A stretch of DNA of 64,000 nucleotides from assembly GCA_045602345.1 (NCBI GenBank), contig JAZSBI010000012.1, forward strand, positions 17-64,016, read 5' to 3'. The notes beneath the pieces are model-generated. The model was given only the letters and a program-made list of their open reading frames with translations, searched no databases and had not been told where the DNA came from. Position numbers and translations under genes: made by a program. Of this stretch, positions 2,659-36,327 are shown piece by piece. The DNA comes from Acutalibacteraceae bacterium (GTDB lineage Bacteria > Bacillota > Clostridia > Oscillospirales > Acutalibacteraceae). Positions within the stretch are counted from its first letter, which is position 1, and the number at the start of each line of letters is the position of its first letter.

Positions 2659-3030
2659 ATGACAGATGAACAAATTACACAGAATGCTTCACAATATTGT
2701 GATATAATGAACGATAAAAATGAAGATATAAGACTAATTCGTTTTGCATCTTATACTGTTGGAGCAACTACGACAAAAGATATAATTGAAAAAGAAAATG
2801 CAGAACTGAAAAAGCAACAGTTTTCTTTAAGAAATGAACGAAATACTTTCCTTGCACAAAATGAACAGTATGAAAAAGATTTAATAGGCTTTAACGAAAA
2901 TCTCACCAAAGCAAAAGAACTTATTAAAAGGCTTATGCACGAATTAGTTGTAAGCAATAGACCTTATGATGAAGTCGAATTACTTGTGAAAGATGTTGAA
3001 CAATTCTTAAATAGCGAGGTGGAGAAATGA
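2659..3030 (+). CDS. coiled-coil protein, paralog family member 2
   Basis: Ends in VEQFLNSEVEK*. Contains LTKAKELIKRL. Preceded by the junction TAGGGAGATAAAAGAAAATG. Confidence 0.7.
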   Translation: MTDEQITQNASQYCDIMNDKNEDIRLIRFASYTVGATTTKDIIEKENAELKKQQFSLRNERNTFLAQNEQYEKDLIGFNENLTKAKELIKRLMHELVVSNRPYDEVELLVKDVEQFLNSEVEK

Positions 3031-3419
3031 CAACAAAAGAAGAACTTGAGAAAGAAGCAAAGACATATGCTGAAGAACACAAAATGGATATGATTGATTA
3101 TCATGACTCTTTATTTATGGAAGATGCTTATATTGCAAGTGCAGAGCCAAGAGAAAGACGAATTGAAGAGCTTGAAAAAGAAAATGCAGCATTGAAAGAA
3201 CAACTTGGCAACAAACAAATGCAGAGCCGAAAAGAAACTTCTGACTTTGTATGGAAACTGAAAACTGCTAATGAGCAGAAAACAGAACATCTCACCAAAG
3301 CAAAGAATATAATCATAAGATTGCTTGAGGCTTTAATTGTTATAGATGGCGAAGAAACTAGAGAATTGAAAGAAGTAAAAGAAGCAGAGCAGTTCTTAAA
3401 TAGCGAGGTAGAGAAATGA
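3027..3419 (+). CDS. coiled-coil protein, paralog family member 3
   Basis: Ends in AEQFLNSEVEK*. Contains LTKAKNIIIRL. ATGA coupling on both sides. Confidence 0.7.
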   Translation: MTTKEELEKEAKTYAEEHKMDMIDYHDSLFMEDAYIASAEPRERRIEELEKENAALKEQLGNKQMQSRKETSDFVWKLKTANEQKTEHLTKAKNIIIRLLEALIVIDGEETRELKEVKEAEQFLNSEVEK

Positions 3420-5240: not shown

Positions 5241-5506
5241 AGAAATTGACGGAACTTTTTAAGAAAAACAGAAAAGAAGAACCAGAAAAGTATAAGAAAA
5301 TCAAAGGTGTGAAAATCGGCGTGCCGTCTTTGGGTAAAGCTGCTGACAGACTTAAAATCTTAGATAAATGTCTTAGATTGTTCGGCATGGCCATAGGTGC
5401 ATATAACATGACTATTAAGACAGAATCAACCGGAATAACCGGTATAAATCTGACAGTATATTTTTTAGACAAGCCGCTTAAAAAAAGTGATCCTTCGACA
5501 TTGTAG
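5237..5506 (+). CDS. hypothetical basic protein
   Basis: ATG 5237 overlaps the upstream stop (ATGA), with TAGGAG upstream. In frame with track ORF 5219..5506. Confidence 0.5.
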   Translation: MKKLTELFKKNRKEEPEKYKKIKGVKIGVPSLGKAADRLKILDKCLRLFGMAIGAYNMTIKTESTGITGINLTVYFLDKPLKKSDPSTL

Positions 5507-5512
5507 ACGAAA

Positions 5513-5538
5513 AGCAGGGCTTAAAACCCTGCTTTTTT
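5513..5538. terminator. hairpin terminator between convergent genes
   Basis: AGCAGGG-cttaaaa-CCCTGCT followed by TTTTTT, with an A-run on the 5' side. Confidence 0.65.
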
Positions 5539-5809
5539 ATTCTTTTACAGCCAAACGAACAATTTCTATTAATCGCCGTAAATGAGCATTTTCACTTTCA
5601 AGCGTTTCTTTTGTTTCACCTGTTATAAGCATTTCAAGAGAAACACCAAACAATTGAGCAATTCTATAGGCAGTTTCGACGTCCGGTAGAGCATCCTTAT
5701 AAATCCAGTTGGTTATTGTCGCCGCAGGAATTTCGAGACGTTCAGCAAGTTCTTTTTGCTGGACGTGATTATCTTTCATAAGTCTTTTAACATTATCCCA
5801 AAACATCAT
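5537..5809 (-). CDS. XRE/Cro-CI family HTH regulator (candidate phage repressor)
   Basis: Contains QKELAERLEIPAATITNWIYKDALPDVETAYRIAQLFGVSLEML, a classic HTH_3 pattern. It is the only minus-strand gene in the early region and is divergent from the rightward genes. Confidence 0.8.
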   Translation of the reverse strand: MMFWDNVKRLMKDNHVQQKELAERLEIPAATITNWIYKDALPDVETAYRIAQLFGVSLEMLITGETKETLESENAHLRRLIEIVRLAVKE

Positions 5810-5839
5810 AATTATATTTCGGCATTTTAATAAAAAAGG

Positions 5840-5868
5840 TTGAAAAAATCTATAAATAAAGATAAAAT
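5840..5868 (+). promoter_or_regulatory. candidate early rightward promoter
   Basis: TTGAAA-17 nt-TAAAAT in the divergent intergenic region. Confidence 0.45.
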
Positions 5869-5898
5869 ATATATATATTCTTCAAATAAATATTTTGT

Positions 5899-6075
5899 AT
5901 GTGCGTAAATAAAGAAGTGAGATTTAAGTGTAAATGCAATTCTCAACAGGTTTTTATAAGGACAGACGGGCAGTTTTTCTTTGTGCAATGTGAAGTATGC
6001 AAAACTCGAACAACAAACCAGCACAGCCCGGAAAAAGCAATTGAAGCATGGCAAAAAGGAAAGTTTCGTGCCTAA
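5899..6075 (+). CDS. small Cys-rich protein, Lar-like (restriction alleviation family) candidate
   Basis: Hand translation MCVNKEVRFKCKCNSQQVFIRTDGQFFFVQCEVCKTRTTNQHSPEKAIEAWQKGKFRA*. The CxC...CxxC plus EKAIEAWQ tail resembles the Lar family eeAieaWN signature. The start could instead be GTG 5917. Below the track cutoff. Confidence 0.4.
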   Translation: MCVNKEVRFKCKCNSQQVFIRTDGQFFFVQCEVCKTRTTNQHSPEKAIEAWQKGKFRA

Positions 6076-12459: not shown

Positions 12460-13156
12460 ATGTACATGGATTTGCTACATGGTAATTGTTACGAGCTTAT
12501 AAAGAACCTGCCTGATAAAAGCATTGATGTTTGCATAACAGATCCGCCGTATCTGTTCAAAGAATCGGGGGGGGGGTATTATGAGAAAGCGTGATTATAC
12601 AAATCAATTAGCTGATTTGAATTGCTGCAATTTCAACCCGTCTGTTTTTCTGGATGCAATACACAGCAAGCTTAAAAAGACATATATTTATGCTTTTTGT
12701 AACAAATCATTGGTTTCTGAATACATTTCTTGGGCGCAAAAACACAAATGTAATTACGACATTCTTGTAATGTGCAAATCAAATCCAATACCGGCATACA
12801 ACAATCATTACTTGAGTGACTTTGAATACATAATAGTCATACGTGAACCGGGAACATATTTTTGCAAAGAGAAGGATATAGAGCTTTATAGAAAATGGTT
12901 TATGACTTCATGCAAAAAGGGCCTGCATCCAGCTGAAAAGCCGGTTACGCTGCTTGAGAAGTTTATAAAAGTATCTTGCCCGGATAACGGGACTGTTTTA
13001 GACCCGTTTATGGGTAGTGGCTCAACAGGTGTTGCTTGTGTAAGAACGAAGCGCAATTTTATCGGAATTGAGATAGACGAAAAATATTTTAAGCTTGCAA
13101 AAGAACGTATCAACGAAGCGAAAAATGAAAACATACTTTTTGATATGGCGGTGTAA
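12460..13156 (+). pseudogene. N4/N6 DNA methyltransferase (DPPY...FxGSGST type) interrupted by a frameshift at a G10 tract; phase-variable or homopolymer error
   Basis: 12460-12594 encodes MYMDLLHGNCYELIKNLPDKSIDVCITDPPYLFKESGGG then stops. The +1 frame (track ORF 12581..13156) carries LDPFMGSGSTGVACVRTKRNFIGIEIDEKYF. G9 would fuse the two parts. Confidence 0.75.
12567..12576 (+). repeat. G10 homopolymer inside the methyltransferase gene
   Basis: Counted directly: g at 12567-12576. Confidence 0.95.
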
Positions 13157-24700: not shown

Positions 24701-27700
24701 TTATTTTATGTCACGTACTCTTGATACGCTTAAAGATGGCGGTATTATGGCTATGGTAGTACCGAGTAGTTTTCTTAATGGCGGCAGCTCATACGGCAAA
24801 GACTTAGAAAAGATTGCCGGTAAAGCAAAACTTCTTGAAGCGTGGCGTTTACCAAACGGAACATTTGACAGCACTGATGTTGGTACTGATATTGTTGTTT
24901 TCCAGAAAGGTGACGGCGGCAAAGTTGATGATTTTGTAAACTACTTTGCAAATAACCCTGATCATATTGCCGGAGAAGTTTCTACACGTATTGGACGTTT
25001 TGGAGAAGAAACATATATTAAATGTAAGGACGGTGAAACTTTTGAAAGTGCTGTTGACAATATCAGTGTAGATACAACTGATGCAGAATTACTTTTAAGG
25101 GAAACCGCGAAAATAACAGAAGTCAAAGAAGAAAAGCCGAAAAAGACAGAAGCCGAAAAGCATAATAATAGAAGCCGGGCCATGAAAGGTAATAAGAACG
25201 CCGAAGGCGCGCATGAAATGCTGAATTCGCCTGATGCTCATATTATGAATGTTGCTGAATTCAATGAGAAATACGGTAAGAACATCGACAAAGAAGACAT
25301 TGAAATTTGGAAGGCAACAGACAAATACGGCAATATCGATAAATCAAAACTGACTGATGAACAAATTGAGTATATCAAAAATAGCAATCATTATGTTTTT
25401 GATAACGGCGAATTTGTCAATGTTGTAAACTTTGCAAGCGGCAATATACGCAAGAAACTTAGAGAGCTATTGCCAAACGATCCACAGTATGAATACAAAA
25501 AGAAGCTGCTTGAAGACGTAATGCCGGTTGAACGCAAAATAGGACAGTTCTTATTGTCTCCAATAACAGACTGGGCCAGAAACTACAAAACGAAAGACGG
25601 CTTGAACCTGATTAAAGGCTTTATTGGCTGGGTTTACAACGGTAACGGCTATTATTCACCGGGCGATTCACCAGTTACACAAGAAGAAATTCCACCTGAA
25701 ATTAGTTTCAATGATGTTTTGGCATTTATTAACCGTGAGCCGGTAAGACTTGACCGCGGTGAAAAAGAAGATGATAAAAAGCTGAATGACCGCTTGAAGT
25801 TTAAGAAAAAGGAAAAGAGACAGGAATGCGCGAACAGACTTTTTAACCGGTATCTTGCCGAAGGTTTAGGACTTGAAGACCAGCAGGATTTAATAAAAGC
25901 ATGGAATGATAATTTTAACTCATTCAGAAACCCTGACTATACTAAAATTCCGGTTTTTGTTGATGGCATGTCTACTCACAAGGGAATGAAAAAATTCACA
26001 CTTACGCCACAACAATTAAAAGGTGTTACACAGCTTGTTAATAAAGGTACAGGCTTACTTGCGTATGATGTTGGTGTAGGTAAAACTGCAACCGGTATTG
26101 TAGCAACTGTTAATCAGATTCAGACAGGCAGAGCAAAAAGACCGTTAATTTGTGTACCAAAACCGACATATACAAACTGGATAAGAACAATCAAACAGCT
26201 TTTCCCAAACATTAAGGTTAATGAACTTGGAAACATGTCAGCTAAATATGTTGACAAAGATTTTACGCCAGAAGAAGGCTCTATTTCAGTTTGTACTTAT
26301 GAAGGTGTTGAAAATATCAGCTTTAACGATTCTGAAATGGAAAGTTTGAAGCGTGATATTGAAACTGTTAATTTTTATGATACAGGCGACAAGAAAGAAT
26401 CAAAAAGACAGCAGGCAAGCAGAGACGAAAAGAACGAAACTCAACTTGGTGAAATGACAAAAACACGCGACGAAGGTGTTCCATTTTCTCAAATGGGCTT
26501 TGACCATATCACTGTTGATGAAGTTCACAATTTCAGGAACTTGTTTAGAATGCCGCGCCGCTTACACAACAAAATTGCAACAGAAGACAATGAAGACATT
26601 GAGGAGGAAGATGTAAGCAAACAGTCTAATGAATTTGGCGCTTTAGGTACAGGCGGCGAACCATCAAACCGTGCAAAAAAACTGTTTGCAATTACACAGC
26701 TTATTCAGAAAAAGAATGAAGGACGTAATACATTCCTTTTAAGTGCAACGCCATTCCAGAATTCGCCGCTTGAGATTTATTCAATTCTTTCATTTATGGC
26801 AAGAGATAAACTGAAAGACTTAGGAATTTATTCTCTTGAGCAATTTGTAGGACAATTCTGTAAGCTGCAAAGTGAGTACGCTGTAAAAGCAAATAAGATT
26901 CAAGAAAAACTCGTAATGAAAGATTTTAACAATCTTTGTGCTTTACAAAATCTTATTACAGAATATATCGATAAAGTAGACGGAGAAGCCGCAGGGGTAA
27001 TACGTCCATATAAACGTACACATACGCCAGAACTTGAAATGACTGAATTACAAAAGGAAATTATGGCGCAATGCAGCGAGTATATTGAAGCACAAGAAGA
27101 ACTTCCAAAAGATGATAGAGATCCGGGGTATATGTTCAGGGCAATGAACGCGATGCGCAATTGTGCTTTAAGCCCGGCCCTTGTTGATGTAGACTTTTTC
27201 CCTGATCCGGCAGATAAACCGCCAATGAGTGAAATTGTTGAAAGTTCTCCAAAACTCAAGTTTGTTTGTGATTCTGTTATAGGACAATACAAACAGAATA
27301 GCAAAAATGGACAAGTTATATATATGCCGTCAGGCGTTGAACAATTCCCGGAAGTAAGAGATTATCTTGTAAAGAACGGCATTCCTAGAGACGCAATAGC
27401 CCTTATGGCAGGCGGCGCTACAACTGATAAAGCTATGGATGCGCGGCAGGCTGTTATAGATGAATTTAACGATGTTGAAGGAAAAACAAAGGTTATTATT
27501 GGAAGCTCAACAATAAAAGAAGGTATTAACCTGCAGGGCAATTCAACAGTTATTTATAACACGCAGCTTGACTGGAATCCTACGGATGCACAGCAGGTAG
27601 AGGGTAGAATTTGGAGACAGGGCAATAAACAGGGAATAACTCATATTGTTTACCCGTTGATGTATGATTCTATCGATTCAATGATTTACCAGAAATATGA

Positions 27701-28847
27701 TGAAAAATCATCAAGACTTGACGCTTTGTTTAGCTATCAAGGCGATACACTCAATGTTGCTGATATTAACCCGGAAGAATTGAAATTCGGACTTATTAAA
27801 GACCCTGAAAAACGCGCTGATTTACAGGTAATGGAATTCACCGATAAAAACAGAAATGATGCAAAAATGTACAGCCAGCTTATTGATGTTTTACACAGGC
27901 AGGTTGAAATTGCTTTTCAGTCGGATGATGTTCTTGCCAAAAAAGCAAACGATGCTATGCACTCTTGGAACTTCAGCGTTGAAAGTCATACAAAACGCTA
28001 TGAAGAAGAAAATGCAGAAGCAAAGAAATACAAAAAGCTGTATGATGAACTTGTTAAAAAATACAAGGGCAAAGAAGACACTTTTGAAAACAACGGTGCT
28101 TATTATACCCGTAGGAACGGAAAAGAAGGCTACGAAGAAGCATTAACTTATATAGGCCGTTCATATGAGAGTCACAAGGCATCAGCAAATAATTATAAAG
28201 AAACATTGACTCACTATAACAAAGAACTTAAAAAATTGACTGATAGCCGCGAATCATGTCGGAAATTCCTTGCAAATAAAGGCATTAACAATGAAGCTGA
28301 TTGCGATGCAAAAATTAAAACATATGTTCAGTTTATGGAAACTGCAAAAGACAACATTGAAAAGGCAAAGACAATGCGCGCGCAATTCTTGGAAGAAGCT
28401 ATAAAGGATAATAAAGCGAAAGAAAAGGTATTGCCATCTTTGGATGAAATGATTAAAGACAATATTTCATCTATTATGAATGACTTGCATCCAATGGACG
28501 ATGAATTCAAAGCGCGCCGACAGGATGAAAACGACAGACTGTTTAAGAGGGGTAAATACGCTGAAACACCGGTGTCAAAATCTCTTGACGGCTTGAAAAT
28601 TGAATTCATCAACTATGTTGAAAAAGAAGCAGCAAAAGAGTTTTATCAAAAATCTTTTGATGGTGTAGCTGATAGAGTTCAGTTTTTGAGTAATGTCAGA
28701 CATATAACGGACAAAATTGAACAAGTTCAATCGCCGGTAGAGTTATTGTCTTTACACAATGCAAGCAGGCCGTTATACAGAAATAATAACCGTTTCTCTA
28801 AAATGTCAGGCAGAATCAGAAAGCTTGTATTAAAAGGCATCAAATAA
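21762..28847 (+). CDS. giant multidomain protein: N-terminal tag, RNase-like modules, N6-adenine methyltransferase and SNF2-family helicase (DarB-like)
   Basis: Methyltransferase motifs IEPSSGIGRF and VAVGNPPYG. Helicase motifs DVGVGKTATG, VDEVHNFRN, LLSATPFQNSPLEIYS and DWNPTDAQQVEGRIWRQGN. Three NRSxAMxGNxNA motifs. Confidence 0.85.
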   Translation: MSRIIYTVDKSVLSSFTFFKPNQIIEKAAKGSQKAEHEYLYRYPNSKGGWNYIYKGEVEKVKKLFQNPIEKLSTIFQFAKEKVHTLYVNHGIKASYNATEKDFAKHILEYKLNKERWDKRFEKLEANQKHKSPVKLNGGKTTQRIQKEVKEVTGQDKKEPGEFKPNASLMRKVWAIFNKEKAAESDRKAESENQKKVKETFDAYADVLKNGGRLNISNPKLGNVVFDAGVLGDLTKKNKGGFGIRHLIASRYLKDGMNTDDICALLYLVKDTVETALPPDTEKSKINLKKDGIWVGISKEWNGEKENWIITGFPENDSEGNITKEAADTIKTVNAQYGYALEHSPIREQVGAVIASINTIASADNSVKPKESEIEAHENRPQAMLGNDNAKKDFTEADKELALSHIKNDAVKMLEIPYERKEYEKLFPRGEVKTPFETVKLGEHQFERLAAKDGGTRKNLIGAMYQTLKEPCAVIEDVDKQGREAKLYIKSFIGENKNKFTLAVVVDIDGKPVSVSFGERKEKQIEQKIKMAARFYYVAADSPTIGTGQEPLPNSSNISSIGGSVKLSEGDRVSQNGDTGVITNDFKNGLVFVEFDNGSKGRVKVSKLKKIDEPKEPETETVKPKESEIEAHENRSRAMLGNQNARKYGISDKSWNYLQRHFEEFENAGRNIITDTGAIDSDFYRAVMNPDTYLTPEQQKEKFAATDEFDAVFAQNGFKKVSEMLIAMYNDYKGATNAENNTGIEPGRLSDSNEPVQSEQLEGNSNKDVHSTENRADRNEPLFSSDESGNGLGRPNSTSDRGRGRITKAQARKIREQCREILKKPDSEITESDKEILSQYVGAGGTDEEDSSNSGVLYEFYTPRNVIKKVWQLVDKYNPNKNKKVIEPSSGIGRFAEDRTENFTLFELEEESARIARILHPDAEVVQGAFQKNFMKQENGRFADKNFDKFDVAVGNPPYGRYEGIYKGRGEGKEFKRYESYFMSRTLDTLKDGGIMAMVVPSSFLNGGSSYGKDLEKIAGKAKLLEAWRLPNGTFDSTDVGTDIVVFQKGDGGKVDDFVNYFANNPDHIAGEVSTRIGRFGEETYIKCKDGETFESAVDNISVDTTDAELLLRETAKITEVKEEKPKKTEAEKHNNRSRAMKGNKNAEGAHEMLNSPDAHIMNVAEFNEKYGKNIDKEDIEIWKATDKYGNIDKSKLTDEQIEYIKNSNHYVFDNGEFVNVVNFASGNIRKKLRELLPNDPQYEYKKKLLEDVMPVERKIGQFLLSPITDWARNYKTKDGLNLIKGFIGWVYNGNGYYSPGDSPVTQEEIPPEISFNDVLAFINREPVRLDRGEKEDDKKLNDRLKFKKKEKRQECANRLFNRYLAEGLGLEDQQDLIKAWNDNFNSFRNPDYTKIPVFVDGMSTHKGMKKFTLTPQQLKGVTQLVNKGTGLLAYDVGVGKTATGIVATVNQIQTGRAKRPLICVPKPTYTNWIRTIKQLFPNIKVNELGNMSAKYVDKDFTPEEGSISVCTYEGVENISFNDSEMESLKRDIETVNFYDTGDKKESKRQQASRDEKNETQLGEMTKTRDEGVPFSQMGFDHITVDEVHNFRNLFRMPRRLHNKIATEDNEDIEEEDVSKQSNEFGALGTGGEPSNRAKKLFAITQLIQKKNEGRNTFLLSATPFQNSPLEIYSILSFMARDKLKDLGIYSLEQFVGQFCKLQSEYAVKANKIQEKLVMKDFNNLCALQNLITEYIDKVDGEAAGVIRPYKRTHTPELEMTELQKEIMAQCSEYIEAQEELPKDDRDPGYMFRAMNAMRNCALSPALVDVDFFPDPADKPPMSEIVESSPKLKFVCDSVIGQYKQNSKNGQVIYMPSGVEQFPEVRDYLVKNGIPRDAIALMAGGATTDKAMDARQAVIDEFNDVEGKTKVIIGSSTIKEGINLQGNSTVIYNTQLDWNPTDAQQVEGRIWRQGNKQGITHIVYPLMYDSIDSMIYQKYDEKSSRLDALFSYQGDTLNVADINPEELKFGLIKDPEKRADLQVMEFTDKNRNDAKMYSQLIDVLHRQVEIAFQSDDVLAKKANDAMHSWNFSVESHTKRYEEENAEAKKYKKLYDELVKKYKGKEDTFENNGAYYTRRNGKEGYEEALTYIGRSYESHKASANNYKETLTHYNKELKKLTDSRESCRKFLANKGINNEADCDAKIKTYVQFMETAKDNIEKAKTMRAQFLEEAIKDNKAKEKVLPSLDEMIKDNISSIMNDLHPMDDEFKARRQDENDRLFKRGKYAETPVSKSLDGLKIEFINYVEKEAAKEFYQKSFDGVADRVQFLSNVRHITDKIEQVQSPVELLSLHNASRPLYRNNNRFSKMSGRIRKLVLKGIK

Positions 28848-28889: not shown

Positions 28890-29288
28890 TTATAACGCCA
28901 AAAAAGGACGGTTAAAAACTTTCTGCAATTTATAAAGCGTTTCTAAAGTTGGGTTTGTTTTGCGAGGGTTCTCTAATCGCTGATATTGTTGATAAGTCAT
29001 TCCGGCTTTTTCAGCAATATCTTTTTGTGATTTTCCAGCGCGTGCTTTTCTTAGCTCAATGGCAAAAGCAACTTTCGGAGAAACTTCAACAGGATAACCA
29101 CCGGTATATTTTGAAGGGGGAATTGGGAAACCTTTTTCAATATCAACAGACAGAACGCCGTCAAGTGCATCTTTTGCCATTTCTAAGGCTTCTTCTAAAG
29201 AATAACCGTAAGTAAGAACATTTGTCATGTCAGGGAACTGTGCAATAAATTTACCGTCTTTTTCCGTTATATCGCAGTTGTAAATCAT
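28890..29288 (-). CDS. hicB: HicB-family antitoxin with C-terminal HTH
   Basis: The N-terminus MIYNCDITEKDGKFIAQFPDMTNVLTYGYSLEEALEMAKDAL and an XRE-type HTH (SQKDIAEKAGMTYQQYQRLE). Overlaps hicA by 4 nt. Confidence 0.85.
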   Translation of the reverse strand: MIYNCDITEKDGKFIAQFPDMTNVLTYGYSLEEALEMAKDALDGVLSVDIEKGFPIPPSKYTGGYPVEVSPKVAFAIELRKARAGKSQKDIAEKAGMTYQQYQRLENPRKTNPTLETLYKLQKVFNRPFLAL

Positions 29289-29506
29289 TTTTGTTTCTCC
29301 TTTAATGTCTTTGGGTCTATATTTGCTTGTTTCAAAATATCTTTTGCAAAATCGCCAAGATCATCATCTTTCCCTTTATGGAATGGAACAGGCACAGGAC
29401 GTGCAAAACCTTCTTTTACAAAGATATGGTGAGAGCTGTTTATTCTATTCAACTTCCAACCGTTCTTTTTTAGTATTTTCATTAATTGTTTTGCCGTCAT
29501 TCCCAT
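29285..29506 (-). CDS. hicA: HicA-family mRNA interferase toxin
   Basis: Contains MTAKQLMKILKKNGWKLNRINSSHHIFVKEG...VPFHKGKDDDLGDFAKDILKQANI. The start is set at the internal Met (29506), directly downstream of the promoter. Confidence 0.8.
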   Translation of the reverse strand: MGMTAKQLMKILKKNGWKLNRINSSHHIFVKEGFARPVPVPFHKGKDDDLGDFAKDILKQANIDPKTLKEKQK

Positions 29507-29512
29507 ATCAAT

Positions 29513-29541
29513 AACATACAACATATATACTGTATTGTCAA
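29513..29541 (-). promoter_or_regulatory. hicAB promoter (possibly leaderless)
   Basis: Minus strand TTGACA-17-TATGTT. The A of ATG 29506 is the 7th nt after the -10. Confidence 0.5.
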
Positions 29542-29629
29542 TGATAATAATTTTCAAAAAACTCTATCTGACACCAACGCCGATAGTTAAATAATTGTAT
29601 TTATAATTACGTAAACAAAGATAAAATAC

Positions 29630-29657
29630 TTGAAAAATCCGCAAATAAAGATATAAT
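29630..29657 (+). promoter_or_regulatory. promoter of the paralog pair (possibly leaderless)
   Basis: TTGAAA-16-TATAAT. ATG 29665 is the 8th nt after the -10, and there is no SD. Confidence 0.45.
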
Positions 29658-29664
29658 GACACTT

Positions 29665-30204
29665 ATGAACGGTTCATCTAACGCCGCTACAAGTGGTATT
29701 CCAAAAAGCAAACTGAGGCAGCTGAAAAGGGCAGATTTTATAGTCGAAAACAATCTTCCTCCAGGCAACGCTATGCCGTCTATTACCGAAAACGAAGACG
29801 GTTCGCTCAATATAACATCATCTAGAATTGTTGATGGTAGTGATTATTGGGCAGGTGCTAAATTTCTGATGAAAAGAGGCGAATTCTTCATTCTTCGGGC
29901 GGAAAGAATCGATTCTGTGTTCGGAATGGTTGACTGGTGGCACAGAAACAATGACAGAGATTATATTCAGATTACGTCTGACGGCGAAGGTACTCTTAGA
30001 GGTAATGCAACTTTTACAGATGCAAAACAGGCTATTGTAATGACACAGGCCTGTCTGCCTGATGAAACGGAAAAAGAAATACATATCAGATTCGGTATAA
30101 ATGAAGGTACTACAGCCCCCGGAATTTATGGTCTTGAAGTATACATAGGAAATATAAGAGACCTTTGCAATGTTGCAAACGTCTTCAAACGAAAGGCGGT
30201 GTAA
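29665..30204 (+). CDS. hypothetical protein, paralog A of a two-gene family
   Basis: In frame with track ORF 29656. The C-terminal half aligns loosely with 30250..30750 (for example GLEVYIGNIRDLCNVANVFKRKAV versus GVTMYKVKTRKLFDALGLFRRESV). Confidence 0.6.
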   Translation: MNGSSNAATSGIPKSKLRQLKRADFIVENNLPPGNAMPSITENEDGSLNITSSRIVDGSDYWAGAKFLMKRGEFFILRAERIDSVFGMVDWWHRNNDRDYIQITSDGEGTLRGNATFTDAKQAIVMTQACLPDETEKEIHIRFGINEGTTAPGIYGLEVYIGNIRDLCNVANVFKRKAV

Positions 30205-30205
30205 G

Positions 30206-30750
30206 ATGGTAGGACGAACAAATGTTTCTGTAAACAGAATGGGGGGGGGGTGTTAGTTAAGGTTAACGCTTCCGGCATTGACCTTAGCAACAACGAAAAC
30301 GGCGGTTTTGGTTGGGGCGGAGATAATGCAGGTGCTTCTTATGCCGTCAGAGAGCCGCTTTCTGTAAGGGATAATGCGGACGGCACGGTCGATATATTGT
30401 CGGCTTATCAAGACCCCACTGGTTTCAGGCATCCATATTTTGCGGTGCATTGCAACGGCGATGAAACATTCCTGATGCATATAAGAAGCATGAAAGTGAA
30501 CACCTATATAGACTGGAACAGAAACGATGTGGCGATGGTTTCCTCTCCATTTGCGCTAAACGCAACTTTAGCGCAGGCGCAGAAAGTCATTGTTGTAAAG
30601 CCGACTTTTGACGTAGCAAATTATGAAGTCAAAATAAGCTTTGGCGCGAGAGGTGTGGACGACGCAGGGCTTTTCGGCGTTACGATGTACAAGGTTAAGA
30701 CACGCAAACTGTTTGACGCTCTGGGGCTTTTTAGGCGTGAATCTGTATAA
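30206..30750 (+). pseudogene. paralog B, reading frame broken at a 5' G10 tract (phase-variable candidate)
   Basis: ATG 30206 lies 2 nt after the upstream stop and encodes MVGRTNVSVNRMGGGC*. G11 would join it to the long frame (track ORF 30250..30750). Confidence 0.6.
30241..30250 (+). repeat. G10 homopolymer
   Basis: Counted directly: g at 30241-30250. Confidence 0.95.
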
Positions 30751-30846: not shown

Positions 30847-32895
30847 ATGAACAAATCGGATTTCAATTCTTTATCACCAGAAACAAAGCTTAACTACTTC
30901 AAACGTGAACTTATCAAACGCCTTGCAGAACAAGAAAAAAAAGACAAACAGATAGTAAAAAAAGCTCTTTCATTTCTTGATATTATTTCAATTCAGAAAA
31001 GTGCAGGCGGCACAACAAGAAAGCGTCACGGCGTAGGCGAGCATGTTATATGGCACGGTCAGGAATATGTAAAAGTTTCCGAACATCCAGCAAGATACAA
31101 GCCCTATTATCGTGAAAACAGCCGTGGTGCACAACTTGCGGCGGCGGCAATTGCAAAAAAAATACGCGCTGCAAAAGATATTGATGAATTGATGCAGGTT
31201 GTTCAAGACAATATGCAGCGTTTCGGCTTTTCGTCCGACGGCAACGATCCATTGTTCAAACTTATGAAAGAAGCCCGGAAAGAATGGGCTAAAAACAAAA
31301 AATCTGGAAAATCGCCGCTTAGTGCTATGAGCACAAAAGAAATGCGTAAAAAATACGGAATTTCTGAAAAGAAAAAAGATGCAAACAATAAACCTGCAGG
31401 CGGCAATATTGAAGACAAGAAAAAGGCGTTAAAAGAAGTTGAAGACGCTATTGATAATGCCGGTGATTATGATGATATTGAGGAACTCGAAAACGAGCGT
31501 CAAAAACTACTCAAAGAAATAAAAGCATCTGAAAAGAAACCGGAACAAAAAGAACCAGAAGCCGAGAAAACAAAGAACCGTAGCGACGCAATGAAGGGAA
31601 ACAAAAACGCCTATAAAGACGGCCCGAAAGACGAAGAAAAAACACAGCGTTTCGCTACTCAAGATGAAGTTGACGAAGCTACAGCCGCTTGCGATAAACA
31701 AACAATTGAACGAAAAGACATGTTGAAAAAGCCTGCAACTCAAATTCAGCAGTATGCAAATTCAAACGTTGAGAATTTTGAAGGTGGCATTGATAAATTT
31801 ATCGAGCATATGCGCGAAGGTAATTCTGATATTTCAATGCAGAAAATTGGAAACGAATTCGCAAAATTGATAAATCATAATATCGCGCGCGATATATGGA
31901 ACGAATACGAATCAGGTCATTTGAAGATTGATGAAAACGGCTTATTCAAAGCAGCTGATGAAGACAAGCTTGAAAGCGAAAAGAATGATACAGAAAAGGC
32001 TATTGAAACAGCTAAAGAACAAATCAAAGAGAATGTAGAACACTACAAAAAATCTGAATATAACAGATGGTCTGCTGAATCAATCATCCGTAAACTCGGC
32101 AAAAAGAAACTAGAGGTATATGCAAACGCAAAAATTGAACTGGATGCAGAAAACTACGAAAAAGATTTGATTGCAAAAGTTGAAAGCATGATTAAAGACG
32201 GGAAAACAGTCAGTGAAACATCAATAGGTTTTGCAGTAAATAATCATTTTATCAATATTGAGTGTCAGAAACTTGCAAGAGCAAAACTTGAAAGCATGGA
32301 AAAAGTGGCCACAGAAATAGACTTGCCGGTAGATCCTGCTGATATGACAGAAGCAAGGTCTATTATTGGTGCTGATGTTGCTCGAATTTTGAACGGACGT
32401 GATGTATACGGGAATGCCAAACAAACTTTGACAGACAAAATACGAAGACGTGTACGCAACAATCCAGGTGTAGCGCGCGCTATGCTTGTTTTTATAAAAC
32501 AGGAACAGGAAAGAACCGGCAAAACCGTTTACACACCGAAACACAGTATATGGGAAGTTTTACCAAAACTCAATGAAAACGCAAAACAGGCAGCCGAAAA
32601 AGGCGAAGGCGAGAAGAAAACTGGTACATCCGGTGTATTGTATCACTCGGATGATGGTGTAACGGTTGTTGAAGATAAGGATTGGGGCAGATATAAAGTA
32701 GAATTCCCCGGCAAGCCTGATTCAGATACAATCAGCACATTGAAACACAACGGCTTTAGATGGTCTCCAAAAAACAAAGTTTGGGTATGCTACAACACAG
32801 CAAACGGCGAGTATTCATTAAAACGTGTTGCTGAAAAGCTCGGCTGGAAGAAAGGCGATTCAAAAGAATCTGCTGATGATACGGAGGGCGTGTAG
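30847..32895 (+). CDS. large K/E-rich multidomain protein with one NRSxAMxGNxNA motif
   Basis: 682 aa. KNRSDAMKGNKNAYK at nt 31573-31617. Has a compact C-terminal domain ...LKHNGFRWSPKNKVWVCY. Confidence 0.7.
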   Translation: MNKSDFNSLSPETKLNYFKRELIKRLAEQEKKDKQIVKKALSFLDIISIQKSAGGTTRKRHGVGEHVIWHGQEYVKVSEHPARYKPYYRENSRGAQLAAAAIAKKIRAAKDIDELMQVVQDNMQRFGFSSDGNDPLFKLMKEARKEWAKNKKSGKSPLSAMSTKEMRKKYGISEKKKDANNKPAGGNIEDKKKALKEVEDAIDNAGDYDDIEELENERQKLLKEIKASEKKPEQKEPEAEKTKNRSDAMKGNKNAYKDGPKDEEKTQRFATQDEVDEATAACDKQTIERKDMLKKPATQIQQYANSNVENFEGGIDKFIEHMREGNSDISMQKIGNEFAKLINHNIARDIWNEYESGHLKIDENGLFKAADEDKLESEKNDTEKAIETAKEQIKENVEHYKKSEYNRWSAESIIRKLGKKKLEVYANAKIELDAENYEKDLIAKVESMIKDGKTVSETSIGFAVNNHFINIECQKLARAKLESMEKVATEIDLPVDPADMTEARSIIGADVARILNGRDVYGNAKQTLTDKIRRRVRNNPGVARAMLVFIKQEQERTGKTVYTPKHSIWEVLPKLNENAKQAAEKGEGEKKTGTSGVLYHSDDGVTVVEDKDWGRYKVEFPGKPDSDTISTLKHNGFRWSPKNKVWVCYNTANGEYSLKRVAEKLGWKKGDSKESADDTEGV

Positions 32896-32939
32896 CTACA
32901 GAAAGCGAAGCGGAAGAACACCAGAATAGAAGTGATGCA

Positions 32940-34703
32940 ATGATGGGCAACCAGAACGCCTATAAAGGAATTGCAGCTCGCTTGCGTGAACAGTTTACAG
33001 AAAATACAAATAAGTATCTCGGTATGTCTTTTGAAAACAAGGCTACAGGCATTGAAGCTGTTTTTTCAAAAGAAAGTCAAAAGGAATTAAAAAGTCGAAC
33101 TGATAATACAAAAGAAAACGGATTTACGTTACAAGAACATTTTGAAGTGGCTAATCAAATAAAAGAGCTATTTGAAAATGCTACACTTGAAAACACTCAC
33201 AATGACACAAAGCACGGCGAAACTAATGTGAAAATCGAACGATTCTTGAGCAAAGAAATCACTTTAAAGTCGGGAAAGAAAGTACAGGCTTGTATCACAG
33301 TTAAACATTCTCTTGATAAAGACGGCAGAATTATCTACTCACTTGAAGCAATGGACATAAAAAATGCCCTTGAAAAAACAAGGGCGAAGGGGCAGCCGAT
33401 TAATCGGACTGTCCACACATCTAATAATATATCACAAACTGGTAAAAATTCAAGCGGAATTGATGATATACGCAAAAATTATGAATCGGCAAAATCAGTT
33501 TCCGGCAATAAGAAAACGATTCATTTAGGCGATGAAAAAATTAAATGTCATTACAAGCTTGTGGAAGCTGATACACCGACGGCAAGCCATGACGAAAACA
33601 CATACAAGCCAACAGAAGGTTTCCCACAAACAAAAGGCTCAACCGCTAACGACAGAAACTATCAGACAGATAAAGATGCACAGGAAAGTGTAAGACATAT
33701 CGCTGCAAACTATAACGGTTTAGCTATTTCTGATTGCCCGGTAGTAACCAAAGACGGCATTGTTTTGTCAGGTAATAATAGAACAATGTCTTCTAAGCTT
33801 GCAGCCAAAAACGGCACAGACGGTGCATATATGGATGCGCTCAAAGAAGAATGTGAGGAATACGGCTTTGATGAAGACGATTTGAAACAGTTCAAGCATC
33901 CGCGCCTGATTCTGGAAATGGACGAATACAACGGTAATTATTCAACGAATGATTTTGCCAAATTCAATAAAGACGGTAAAAAAACAATGAACAACACAGA
34001 AAAAGCCGTCAAAATCTCCAAGACAATTGATGAAAAAGCAATTACAGATATTGCCGAAACAATGAGTGAGTATGAAACTTTAGGCGAGCTTTATGATAAC
34101 AAAAAAGCTGCAATGAACCTTGCTACAACACTTGTTACCAGCGGCATTATTGACCGTAATGAGCTTGCTCAATACTACACAGAAGACAACGGCTTTTCTG
34201 AAACTGGAAAAGACTTTATTGAAACGGCCCTTGTTGGAAGCGTTCTGGACGAAGCGAACATAAGAAGCGTTTCAAGTTCCGGCGGAAAAGAAATCCGTAA
34301 AAAACTTGTACGCGCCATACTTCCATTGATTGAAAACAAGGGTACAGGAAATGAATATTCATTCAACAAAGAATTGAATGAAGCTGTAAAGATTGCCGTT
34401 GAAGTTTCAAAGAACCATGACAAATTCAAGAACACAGACGAATATTTTGCGCAAGGCGATTTGTTTGGCGGAAATAAAAAAGACCCGTTGACGAAAAAGC
34501 TTGCTGAAATAATTCACGATTCTACACAGAAAGACTTTAACGAAAAAATGAAATCTATTAATGCCGGTTTAAGACCTGCTGCAAGCGGTCAATTTGATAT
34601 GTTTTGTGGCGGTTGCGAGTCAAAAGAAAGTATCATGTCAAGAATTCTTGATATAAAAGATACTGTTAAAAAAGCATTTAATTCTATATTTGGTGGTAAA
34701 TAA
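32940..34703 (+). CDS. large protein with ParB/sulfiredoxin-like core; begins inside an NRSxAMxGNxNA motif
   Basis: PVVTKDGIVLSGNNRTMSSKLAAKNG resembles the ParB-superfamily GxxR loop. The N-terminus is MMGNQNAYKG. Confidence 0.55.
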   Translation: MMGNQNAYKGIAARLREQFTENTNKYLGMSFENKATGIEAVFSKESQKELKSRTDNTKENGFTLQEHFEVANQIKELFENATLENTHNDTKHGETNVKIERFLSKEITLKSGKKVQACITVKHSLDKDGRIIYSLEAMDIKNALEKTRAKGQPINRTVHTSNNISQTGKNSSGIDDIRKNYESAKSVSGNKKTIHLGDEKIKCHYKLVEADTPTASHDENTYKPTEGFPQTKGSTANDRNYQTDKDAQESVRHIAANYNGLAISDCPVVTKDGIVLSGNNRTMSSKLAAKNGTDGAYMDALKEECEEYGFDEDDLKQFKHPRLILEMDEYNGNYSTNDFAKFNKDGKKTMNNTEKAVKISKTIDEKAITDIAETMSEYETLGELYDNKKAAMNLATTLVTSGIIDRNELAQYYTEDNGFSETGKDFIETALVGSVLDEANIRSVSSSGGKEIRKKLVRAILPLIENKGTGNEYSFNKELNEAVKIAVEVSKNHDKFKNTDEYFAQGDLFGGNKKDPLTKKLAEIIHDSTQKDFNEKMKSINAGLRPAASGQFDMFCGGCESKESIMSRILDIKDTVKKAFNSIFGGK

Positions 34704-34980: not shown

Positions 34981-36327
34981 ATGACAATAATTGATTTTGA
35001 CGTATTAAAAAGTTTTGCTGATAGTTTTGGATATGATATTGTAATAGAAAAGCGTGTTAATGGACGGAACATAGCAAAGCTGATAAAGCGCCGTGTTCAA
35101 GATAAAAACGGTAAAATGACAACTGTTTATGTTAAAAATGGTGAAGAAGTGAAAATTCACACAAATAGGAACGGCAAGGCTGTAGGTGAGGTTGACATAA
35201 CCGGCAAGACAAAACATATATTAGGAAGCAAAGTTAGTTTTTCAAATAAGAACGGCAAAAATCAGAACGGCTTTATTGTTGAATCAAGAAACAACATGGA
35301 TGTAATACAAGACATTCACGGCGTTAGGCACTTTGTTCCGCACGACGCTATCCAGGTGAAGCATCTAACGCCGGAAACAATCAATAAAAAAATGTCTGCA
35401 AAAGATTTTAATGCTGCTGAATATAACCGTAAATATGATGATTTTGAAGCAAACGGAAGCTATAAAGGCATTGACTATTCTCTACAAAAATTCATAAGCG
35501 GTCTGAAAGACACGCATCCAGAAATTGAGCAGCGAATAAACTATGATATTAAAAGAGCTGAATCAAAACCCGAAACGATTTCGCTTTACAGGTTGAGCGG
35601 AGAGGGCGCGGAAGCTGTTTATTCTAAAGAACGGGAAGAAATACATAAAAAGATTATGGCTGAATTTTTTACGCCAGAAAAAATATGGAATACAACGCCC
35701 ATAGGAAACGAAAAACCGAAATTCCTTATTTTAGGTGGCAGAGGCGGAAGCGGCAAATCAGCCTTTAATGCAGATGAACATCCTGAATCCGGTGTATATT
35801 CAGAGAAAAACGTAATAAAGGTTGACCCTGACGAATTAAAAGAAAAGCTTGCAAACCTGACAGAAAAAGAGGGTTGGCAGGGTTATATGGCGGCGGCTTA
35901 TCACGAAGAATCAAGCGATTTATCAAAGAAAATAATGAAACAAGCAGTTTTAATGAACTTGAATGTTGTCATGGATATTACAATGTCGAATGCAGACAAG
36001 CAAATTGAAGAATTGGAACTTGCTCATTCATACGGATATGAAACAGGCGTTCATTATATGCACGTACCGAAACAAGACAGTTTCCGGCGCGCGATGTGTA
36101 GATATTGCGAAAACAAAAAGACAAAAGAATTTGATTATTCCGGGAGACTTGTTCCGCCGAGCGTATTATTGAGCATGGTTAATAATGAAGAAAACTTTGA
36201 AAAAATCAAAAAGTATGCTGATAATTGGAGTTTTTGGAACAATTTTATTCCGTGGAAGAATCCAGACGGCACAAAAAACGGAGCTATTAAAATTTGTGAG
36301 GGTGGAAAGCAGAAGGCTTGCCGATAA
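34981..36327 (+). CDS. zeta-toxin-like P-loop kinase, paralog 2
   Basis: Contains KPKFLILGGRGGSGKSAFN, VVMDITMSN and YSGRLVPPSVLLSM. Its C-terminal half is collinear with 17792..18883. Confidence 0.75.
   Translation: MTIIDFDVLKSFADSFGYDIVIEKRVNGRNIAKLIKRRVQDKNGKMTTVYVKNGEEVKIHTNRNGKAVGEVDITGKTKHILGSKVSFSNKNGKNQNGFIVESRNNMDVIQDIHGVRHFVPHDAIQVKHLTPETINKKMSAKDFNAAEYNRKYDDFEANGSYKGIDYSLQKFISGLKDTHPEIEQRINYDIKRAESKPETISLYRLSGEGAEAVYSKEREEIHKKIMAEFFTPEKIWNTTPIGNEKPKFLILGGRGGSGKSAFNADEHPESGVYSEKNVIKVDPDELKEKLANLTEKEGWQGYMAAAYHEESSDLSKKIMKQAVLMNLNVVMDITMSNADKQIEELELAHSYGYETGVHYMHVPKQDSFRRAMCRYCENKKTKEFDYSGRLVPPSVLLSMVNNEENFEKIKKYADNWSFWNNFIPWKNPDGTKNGAIKICEGGKQKACR

Follow-up and report, generated by a model that had tools for sequence, protein, structure and literature searches.

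A conserved reading-frame break within a linker motif divides a polyvalent phage gene and may be a recoding site

We analysed a 64,000-nucleotide (nt) stretch of contig JAZSBI010000012.1 (positions 17 to 64,016, forward strand; assembly GCA_045602345.1, Acutalibacteraceae bacterium), called the window below, in which the boundary between two adjacent open reading frames (ORFs), ORF1 and ORF2, falls halfway through a conserved linker motif of 24 residues. The two ORFs are halves of one modular polyvalent gene, in the order N-terminal domain (N-domain), variable modules, ParB, and the break between them is real and inherited. The half of the motif that lies upstream of ORF2 evolves, by its pattern of substitutions, like protein-coding sequence. 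We regard a conserved non-canonical recoding site at the junction as a serious and testable possibility: the reading that we favour, at a probability of roughly 0.45, is dual decoding, in which ORF1 would be made alone and also as an ORF1-ORF2 fusion through a forward slip stimulated by a Shine-Dalgarno (SD) sequence.

ORF2 lies in the -1 frame relative to ORF1. This frame is closed by a TGA at 32877-79 and open from 32880, and it contains no ATG, GTG or TTG from there to the start of ORF2. Positions 32880-32939, which run from TAC GGA GGG CGT GTA to AGA AGT GAT GCA in the ORF2 frame, encode YGGRVATESEAEEHQNRSDA. The features of the junction and the parts of the two ORFs (lengths in amino acids, aa) are as follows.

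30847 to 32895, forward strand: ORF1, 682 aa; final codons GAT ACG GAG GGC GTG TAG (..SADDTEGV), with the stop TAG at 32893-32895
30847 to 32895, forward strand: parts of ORF1, namely the family-wide N-domain (..GEHVIWHGQEYVKV..), one internal linker motif and a C-terminal 'HNGFRW' domain (aa ~591-663; match to phrog_19458, aa 591-663)
32880 to 32939, forward strand: start-less stretch in the ORF2 frame, formally intergenic; YGGRVAT followed by ESEAEEHQNRSDA, with the first half of the linker motif at 32901-32939
32882 to 32895, forward strand: conserved junction element and candidate shift site, CGGAGGG-C-GTG-TAG; GGAGG at 32883-87, two bases, GTG at 32890-92, then TAG followed by C
32901 to 32969, forward strand: complete linker motif cut by the annotated ORF2 start; ESEAEEHQNRSDA followed by MMGNQNAYKG
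32940 to 34703, forward strand: ORF2, 587 aa; opens ATG ATG GGC AAC CAG AAC GCC (MMGNQNAYKG)
32982 to 33338, forward strand: LPD3 domain of ORF2, aa 15-133 (Pfam, 3.2e-13)
33531 to 33911, forward strand: ddrB-ParB domain of ORF2, aa 198-324 (Pfam, 8.3e-13)

The original prediction, made from the letters of the window, had ORF2 beginning at the conserved Met of the motif with the first half of the motif upstream in the same frame; it also gave the -1 offset, the stop at 32893-32895 and an upstream frame open from 32880 without a start codon. Every one of these details is borne out. The fusion, which it put at about 1270 aa, comes to 1285 aa when computed.

The case for a single ancestral gene comes from the ParB homologues. 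ORF1 begins with the N-domain that is common to these proteins, and the N-domain stands in the same polypeptide as ParB in at least 105 of the 120 best homologues when scored by pattern, or in about 113 of 120 when variant N-domains are counted by eye. In P0002/L002/L008 an ORF1-like part is joined directly to ParB, without motif or GGAGG, while in P0003 two complete genes are fused. Every ParB-only ORF examined has an N-domain ORF directly upstream and a single lesion between the two; in the window clade and in the distant relative L006, that lesion is the -1 break at the motif. Across 65 ParB loci surveyed in IMG/VR and GTDB, the genes are continuous almost everywhere, with no further split of the motif type. 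Fused or continuous versions are thus the rule, which supports the proposal that a formerly single polyvalent gene was split, and the question that came with it, whether the two ORFs are fused elsewhere, is answered by these same homologues. Because the HNGFRW domain is usually C-terminal in other proteins, the split perhaps arose by a deletion that joined two neighbouring genes and not by an internal break. No continuous gene running from HNGFRW through the linker into the motif was found. Such an origin would leave the question of decoding unchanged.

The identical junction occurs in three relatives: L001 (Logan SRR29277930), L007 (JAEEGH010001126.1), which keeps the full motif and lacks LPD3, and L013/L031 (JAEEHZ010000106.1), which has the full motif and LPD3. 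The same split architecture is found in the distant lineage P0209/L006 (SRR21576050), whose ParB part is 62% identical to that of the window. Its ORF1-like gene ends ..TCG GAG GAT GTG CGG TAA and the next ORF is again in the -1 frame, which opens one codon before GGAGG, contains no start codon, and encodes IGGCAVKESAAEEHENRSQA before ATG ATG GGA AAT CAG. The motif Met is the first start codon there as it is in the window, in agreement with the predicted recruitment of an internal Met as a start. The distance from GGAGG to ATGATG is 57 nt in both lineages, with no indel, and the gap from the ORF1 stop to the ORF2 start is 44 nt in the window and 41 nt in L006. Split homologues without an upstream remnant of the motif had been expected to count against the original prediction; the opposite was found, in that the only distant split homologue, L006, retains the remnant. 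Surveys of IMG/VR, GTDB and JGI, made with the HNGFRW domain in three collections, with MMGNQNA DNA patterns, with the pattern GGAGG..GTG..EEH.NR and through the 65 ParB loci, gave no further lineage with the junction beyond the window's own clade.

In L001 the ORF1 homologue ends ..CGGAGGGCGTGTAGCTACAGAA, and the next gene starts 8 nt past the stop as MDIKNALEK... All LPD3 homologues run through ..SLEAMDIKNALEKTRAKGQP, and ORF2 of L001 begins inside this conserved C-terminal segment (..SLEA, then MDIKNALEKTRAKGQP). L001 is therefore an in-frame deletion derivative of a window-like state, and the converse, with L001 ancestral and LPD3 inserted in the window, was rejected on the same evidence. 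The deletion preserves the -1 frame and removed the following segment.

32905 to 33351, forward strand: 447 nt (149 codons) with the remainder of the motif and the greater part of LPD3; found in the window and L013, deleted in L001

Both halves of the gene are under purifying selection and functional. Compared between the window and L001, the C-terminal part of ORF1 has a ratio of nonsynonymous to synonymous substitution rates (dN/dS) of 0.056 and the ParB part of ORF2 one of 0.098; in all five assemblies ORF2 is intact and free of further lesions. Between the window and L006, third codon positions in the flanking genes are close to saturation, at an identity of 0.43-0.53. Over the 19 codons from GGAGG to the ATG, 12 of 19 residues are identical between the two in the -1 frame, compared with 5 of 18 in each other frame; in the same 57-nt alignment, a hand count gives an identity of 0.71 at codon positions 1 and 2 and 0.47 at position 3. 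Within the 13-codon half-motif, 10 of 13 residues are identical at 67% nucleotide identity, and five codons differ synonymously, including two switches between AGY and TCN serine codons. Keeping 10 of 13 residues has a probability of ~1e-3 with randomly placed substitutions and of ~5e-6 at the third-position divergence of the flanking genes. The evidence does not support a recent gene conversion of the half-motif by a second copy within the window: none of the window copies exceeds 74% identity to it, and the best matches beyond the window's own clade (77-79%) come from other genomes. A stop closes the -1 frame a short way upstream and no start codon follows, so that only ribosomes arriving from ORF1 can read the half-motif. 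The arrangement of frames and the peptide of the downstream frame are conserved between the window clade and L006, which is the pattern looked for in programmed recoding, here in two lineages.

Directly upstream of the half-motif stands the junction element. GGAGG, two bases and GTG are present in the window, L001, L007, L013 and L006, where the element reads tCGGAGG-AT-GTG-CGG-TAA; the surrounding tail of ORF1 is otherwise unalignable between the window and L006, and CGGAGG-NN-GTG is absent from the fused homologues. Its codons are rare. In the window ACG makes up 12% of Thr codons, GAG 14% of Glu and GTG 7% of Val, and TAG is the stop of 5 of 38 genes; in L006 TCG makes up 3% of Ser codons and GAG 12% of Glu, while GTG is used for 1 of 72 Val and CGG for 1 of 46 Arg. 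The -1-frame codon that overlaps the stop is GTA in both lineages (at 32892-94 in the window), two bases past GTG in the window and five in L006. A move from GUG to the overlapping GUA (+2) in the window is cognate for one tRNA-Val; in L006 the +2 codon is the mismatched GCG, and GUA stands at +5. In the +1 frame a stop is reached after 12 codons in the window and after 10 in L006, so that the productive frame is -1, equivalent to +2.

The start of ORF2 has no SD sequence: its best duplex with the anti-SD is -1.7 kcal/mol, whereas most of the 38 window genes checked have an SD, typically at -5 to -12 kcal/mol. In translational coupling the start lies within a few nt of the stop, with an SD at 5-10 nt, and this is not the arrangement in the window; in L001, with its 8-nt gap, 16 nt separate GGAGG from the ATG. 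Neither a promoter nor a terminator or other structure was found between ORF1 and ORF2. Several other routes into the ORF2 frame were considered and dropped. There is no homopolymer at the site for transcriptional slippage, unlike the A11 run of relative L043. Reassignment of TAG or a suppressor tRNA would be irrelevant, the frames being different, and is unsupported, as the window has no tRNA gene. An upstream non-canonical start of ORF2 was rejected since GGAGG is preceded by only one open codon of the -1 frame, and the two lineages have no near-cognate start in common at a spacing that would work.

A similar arrangement was seen at L004 (3690..3860), where a portal gene ends ..GAT GAT TCG GAG GAC GGC TAG and is followed by an LPD3 gene. 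GGC recurs 5 nt on across the stop, and the -1 frame runs for 29 codons without a start, through a second conserved peptide (..PREKNGRFGSK..), into LPD3. We had counted this locus as a third example of a shift and then downgraded it: its LPD3 gene has its own start (AGGAG-8 nt-GTG), given which the likeness to the window junction may be coincidence, and an acidic tail of the DDSE type can account for the shared GATGATNCGGAGG.

The dual decoding that we favour would work as follows. Most ribosomes would terminate at the TAG at 32893 and yield ORF1, while a fraction would enter the -1 (= +2) frame at GGAGG-NN-GUG followed by a slow codon. The duplex of SD and anti-SD, two bases 5' of the P-site codon, would weaken the hold of peptidyl-tRNA-Val on the rare GUG as the slowly decoded UAG-C occupies the A site, and the tRNA would then re-pair two bases forward on the overlapping GUA. 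In the L006 version, the A-site codon would be the rare CGG, followed by UAA, with GUA five bases ahead. Shifted ribosomes would read the complete linker motif into LPD3-ParB and give a fusion of ~1285 aa and ~145 kDa in which ParB is attached to the N-domain. Such a fusion would resemble the continuous genes of relatives, with the ORF1 protein more abundant beside it, and ORF2 might also be made alone from the ATG ATG. The possible slip routes are predicted to differ in their junction peptides: ..DDTEGV-ATESEAEEHQNR for the +2 slip, with ..TEGVVATESE.. and ..TEGRVATESE.. as further forms, DDTEGVVATESEAEEHQNR for -1 decoding in the A site and DDTEGRVATESE for a slip at GGC. We favour non-canonical recoding because it explains together, and most simply, the constraint on the half-motif, the rare-codon element, the missing SD of ORF2 and the GTA at the stop.

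A number of observations weigh against this reading. A +2 slip is rare, and the re-pairing geometry differs between the lineages, being +2 in the window and +5, or a mismatched +2, in L006. Neither an X XXY YYZ nor a Z ZZN slippery site is present (T ACG GAG GGC GTG TAG in the window, A TCG GAG GAT GTG CGG TAA in L006), the fold of 32870-32990 has z = 0.26, with 110 of 200 shuffles folding as well, and there is no Rfam match at the junction. The motif's own ATG ATG is fully adequate as a start, and the deletion in L001 reaches precisely to an ATG 8 nt past the stop, a hint that independent initiation is important. The same gene family has also been split by plain mutations: in L041 AAA became TAA at 2950 after a T8 run, L043 carries a frameshift at an A11 run (3030..3045), which is a candidate slippage site or an assembly error, and L044 has an in-frame TGA at 2971. 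Only two independent lineages carry the junction. Polymorphism among close relatives has no power as a test of constraint, the divergence being mosaic and the junction lying in a near-identical block. We hold our confidence at about the level given above because of the non-canonical mechanism, the differing geometry, the lack of a downstream stimulator, the number of lineages and the deletion in L001. Canonical -1 frameshifting, which had been put forward as one way to a fusion, was rejected for want of a heptamer, a downstream structure and an Rfam match. The original prediction was right that 32880-32895 holds no heptamer; its step from there to fission was too quick, since the half-motif is under peptide constraint and an SD-like rare-codon element stands at the shift window.

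The closest competitor, which we hold to be nearly as likely, is plain fission: a frameshift in the linker split the gene, ORF2 is started at the motif Met by re-initiation or by new ribosomes, and the half-motif is an untranslated relic kept by recombination with translated copies or by a constraint on the leader RNA. The ATG ATG is present in both lineages, the two ORFs are co-transcribed and 44 nt apart with nothing structured or terminator-like between them, L001 lost the motif and gained another ATG close behind the stop, and no canonical recoding signal is seen. Such an event would also be in keeping with a family in which ordinary mutations have split other members and modules are frequently gained and lost around motifs (P0001 compared with ORF1, P0028, and LPD3 in L007, L013 and the window). 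However, it leaves much unexplained: the peptide-type conservation of the half-motif across near-saturated divergence, for which the window holds no near-identical donor of gene conversion; the conserved CGGAGG-NN-GTG with its rare codons and the slow codon behind it; the equal 57-nt spacing without indels; and the missing SD of a selected gene in a genome that uses SD sequences.

If instead the window clade and L006 had each suffered a recent frameshift in a continuous ancestor, the genes would be incipient pseudogenes and the half-motif would be intact since it was recently translated. Ordinary disruptions do exist in the family, among them a Treponema prophage copy with two in-frame stops (L138, at 3456) besides L041, L043 and L044. 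But both frameshifts would have had to fall in the same ~15-nt window, with the same -1 offset and at the same rare-codon element; no continuous HNGFRW-linker-motif gene was found as their source, and ORF2 has kept a dN/dS of 0.098 since the split without further lesions in five assemblies. We consider this improbable. Least credible of all is an indel introduced in sequencing or assembly of the window, which the original prediction had allowed for and which has nothing in its favour beyond the frame break itself. It is refuted by the same junction in the independent assemblies SRR29277930, JAEEGH010001126.1 and JAEEHZ010000106.1 (L001, L007 and L013/L031) and by the recurrence of the architecture in SRR21576050 (L006), and the site has no homopolymer. 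Dual decoding remains the reading that we prefer, and it has a bolder form that we advance tentatively and hold to be doubtful: a new kind of programmed recoding site, made of GGAGG, two bases and a rare GUG before a stop or rare codon, with re-pairing of tRNA-Val onto GUA at +2 or +5. Such a site might fix the fusion of N-domain to ParB as a minority product and serve as a platform for the exchange of cargo modules (LPD3 present or absent, ParB variants), with the intact motif functional in the fusion, for example as a processing site or as a DNA- or capsid-tethering element.

The linker motif itself has the consensus ESEAEKHQNRSDAMKGNKNAYKGG, drawn from 29 instances in the window and homologues, and is always placed between modules. 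It occurs five times in the window (AM codon at 22908, 23673, 25179, 31588 and 32937), once at the junction and in four further places, three of them in a neighbouring polyvalent ORF of 2361 aa.

22872 to 22940, forward strand: linker motif, copy 1, in the 2361-aa ORF
23637 to 23705, forward strand: linker motif, copy 2, in the 2361-aa ORF
25143 to 25211, forward strand: linker motif, copy 3, in the 2361-aa ORF
31552 to 31620, forward strand: linker motif inside ORF1, EPEAEKTKNRSDAMKGNKNAYKD; the relative L001/P0001 has an extra module here

A search with a 32-column profile found the motif in 138 clusters (E<=1e-3) among 1.84e9 representative proteins. It is thus rare, and far above chance expectation; the proteins that bear it are nearly all of 500-3000 aa and hold up to nine copies each. 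Three motif peptides had no match in Pfam at E up to 10, the NUMOD3 model included, and a profile search of the PDB with the motif gave nothing significant. The copies in the window differ at about half of their synonymous codons; therefore it is the peptide that is conserved and not the DNA, and we rejected the idea that the motif is a DNA recombination site. Its strong conservation at module boundaries implies recognition by some partner; it may be a processing site at which modules are released, or a short DNA- or capsid-tethering element. If the motif were cleaved near its A and M, a gene boundary at this point would give nearly the same mature products, which would help to explain why the split is tolerated. 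In an unrelated Oscillospiraceae locus (L034, 2380..2480), a NUMOD3-like repeat ends ..TKTKISKAMMGNQNAKK at the stop (..KISKAMMGNQNAKK) and resembles the second half of the motif, which hints at a role in DNA binding.

Modules have been gained and lost at or beside the motif (P0001, P0028 and P0017; the presence of LPD3 in L007, L013 and the window). P0001, at 97% identity to ORF1, carries one more module, set between two copies of the motif of which one is partly deleted. This module of ~125 aa (LARDTIKFVKEVKGEPYHAFETD..) sits at the internal motif of ORF1 (window 31539..31550, L001 6693..7079), the left flanking copy lacks RSDAMKGN, and the same module also follows motifs in P0019, P0027 and P0029. 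In P0028 a module lies inside a motif with SDAMKG on both flanks (..NRSDAMKG-KKEIIF...FSSL-SDAMKGNKNAYKGG), a pattern that looks like duplication of an insertion target or unequal recombination within the motif, and in P0017 the motif is truncated. Many stand-alone LPD3 proteins of 220 aa (P0037, P0038, P0044, P0048 and others) open without the linker motif and with another short peptide, ..EWEE.KHPRD..GQF.. or ..ANG.EHSG.NGQFV.KG, which may be a second boundary or targeting motif of virion-delivered proteins.

The window belongs to an uncultivated phage: megablast found no match among known phages, and no capsid protein in the phage collection or in cultured phages shares more than 30% identity with that of the window. 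The split gene lies among the following genes.

21762 to 28847, forward strand: neighbouring polyvalent ORF, 2361 aa; Eco57I-type methylase, SNF2 helicase and Helicase_C above the curated Pfam cut-offs, PBECR1 and PBECR2 just under them
28890 to 29557, reverse strand: HicB-like (132 aa) and HicA-like (90 aa) toxin-antitoxin pair, between the two polyvalent genes
34981 to 36327: Zeta-toxin/AAA_33 kinase-domain protein, 448 aa, directly 3' of ORF2; syntenic in L001, L002 and L044
from 36713: head maturation protease, just downstream of the polyvalent block
from 38170: major head protein, with tail genes further downstream

The synteny with virion genes is repeated in relatives, and the large multi-domain product of the split gene is probably delivered in the virion. 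The 448-aa Zeta-toxin-domain protein is probably another virion-delivered effector. The same HicAB-like pair is also present in L001, and in L002 its orientation is reversed. Homopolymeric G tracts (~G10 and ~G9) at 12560..12580 and 30236..30252 adjoin the starts at 12581 (ATG) and 30250 (GTG); both double as SD-like sequences and are candidates for slippage-prone, phase-variable sites. In place of the 166-aa ORF at 30250..30750, which by size and position may be a paralogue of 29656..30204, the 97-98% identical relative L001 has an unalignable gene of much the same size (5349..5923); the region forms a hypervariable cassette next to the polyvalent genes. Most relatives of these genes are found in Treponema/Spirochaetia metagenome-assembled genomes, including T. 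socranskii and T. vincentii, and some are in Clostridia/Lachnospiraceae bins; the contigs closest to the window are binned as Clostridiaceae (Tb.RUG.134). As the bins of relatives are split between Treponema/Spirochaetia and Clostridia, the host of the phage is uncertain.

Polyvalent proteins are thought to be the first weapons that a phage injects. This locus reveals a previously undescribed and strongly selected peptide motif at the module boundaries of one polyvalent family, with modules gained and lost at or beside it even among near-identical phages, and it shows one such boundary to be a conserved reading-frame break whose 'non-coding' side stays constrained as a peptide. If the shift is true, it would be a natural example of a very rare process, SD-stimulated +2 or short-hop recoding, and would supply a protein with and without its cargo. 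If plain fission is true, the locus would be a clean case of a linker Met recruited as a start codon, with the intact untranslated half-motif left unexplained.

The polyvalent proteins of phages and conjugative elements described by Iyer, Burroughs, Anand, de Souza and Aravind in 2017 (PMC5512222) are, like those of the window, large, composed of many unrelated modules (LPD3, ddrB-ParB, PBECR1/2, an Eco57I-type methylase with an SNF2 helicase) and encoded beside virion genes, and that paper lists ddrB-ParB and PBECR2 as specific to the phage type. ORF1 and ORF2 belong to a polyvalent-protein block in this sense, with several unrelated domains in one polypeptide and virion genes alongside; here a gene for a Zeta-toxin protein accompanies the polyvalent genes and a HicAB pair lies between them. 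That account covers neither the 24-residue motif between modules nor the shared N-domain nor the split junction, and the terms 'linker' and 'conserved motif' do not occur in it.

As in translational coupling by termination and re-initiation, ORF2 follows ORF1 on one transcript, and the start in L001 is 8 nt past the stop; it differs in the gaps of 44 nt (window) and 41 nt (L006), in the lack of an SD at the start and in a gap that encodes a conserved peptide. The -1 frameshifting of tail-assembly chaperones of the lambda G/GT type likewise gives a short and a C-terminally extended protein from frames offset by -1, whereas the window has neither an X XXY YYZ heptamer nor a downstream stimulator. 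The programmed +1 frameshift of prfB (RF2) uses an SD-like sequence, 3 nt, and CUU UGA C. The window resembles it in having an SD-like sequence within a few bases of the P-site codon on its 5' side, an inefficiently decoded stop in the A site with C as the next base, and a shift needed to reach the downstream frame; it differs in needing -1 (= +2) and not +1, in a spacer of 2 nt and in the proposed re-pairing of GUG on an overlapping GUA. The bypass in phage T4 gene 39/60 and synthetic 'stop-hops' (PMC5009743) share with the window a phage gene in pieces and, on the reading proposed here, a take-off codon directly before a stop; here the distance would be 2-5 nt instead of 50, no take-off hairpin or nascent-peptide signal was identified, and the geometry of L006 is unlike that of the window. 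Recoding is known to make use of slow A-site codons, of shifts next to a stop and of re-pairing on matched codons that overlap or lie nearby (PMC5009743), and the 'shifty stops' and 'stop-hops' reviewed there follow the same logic as the slip proposed here.

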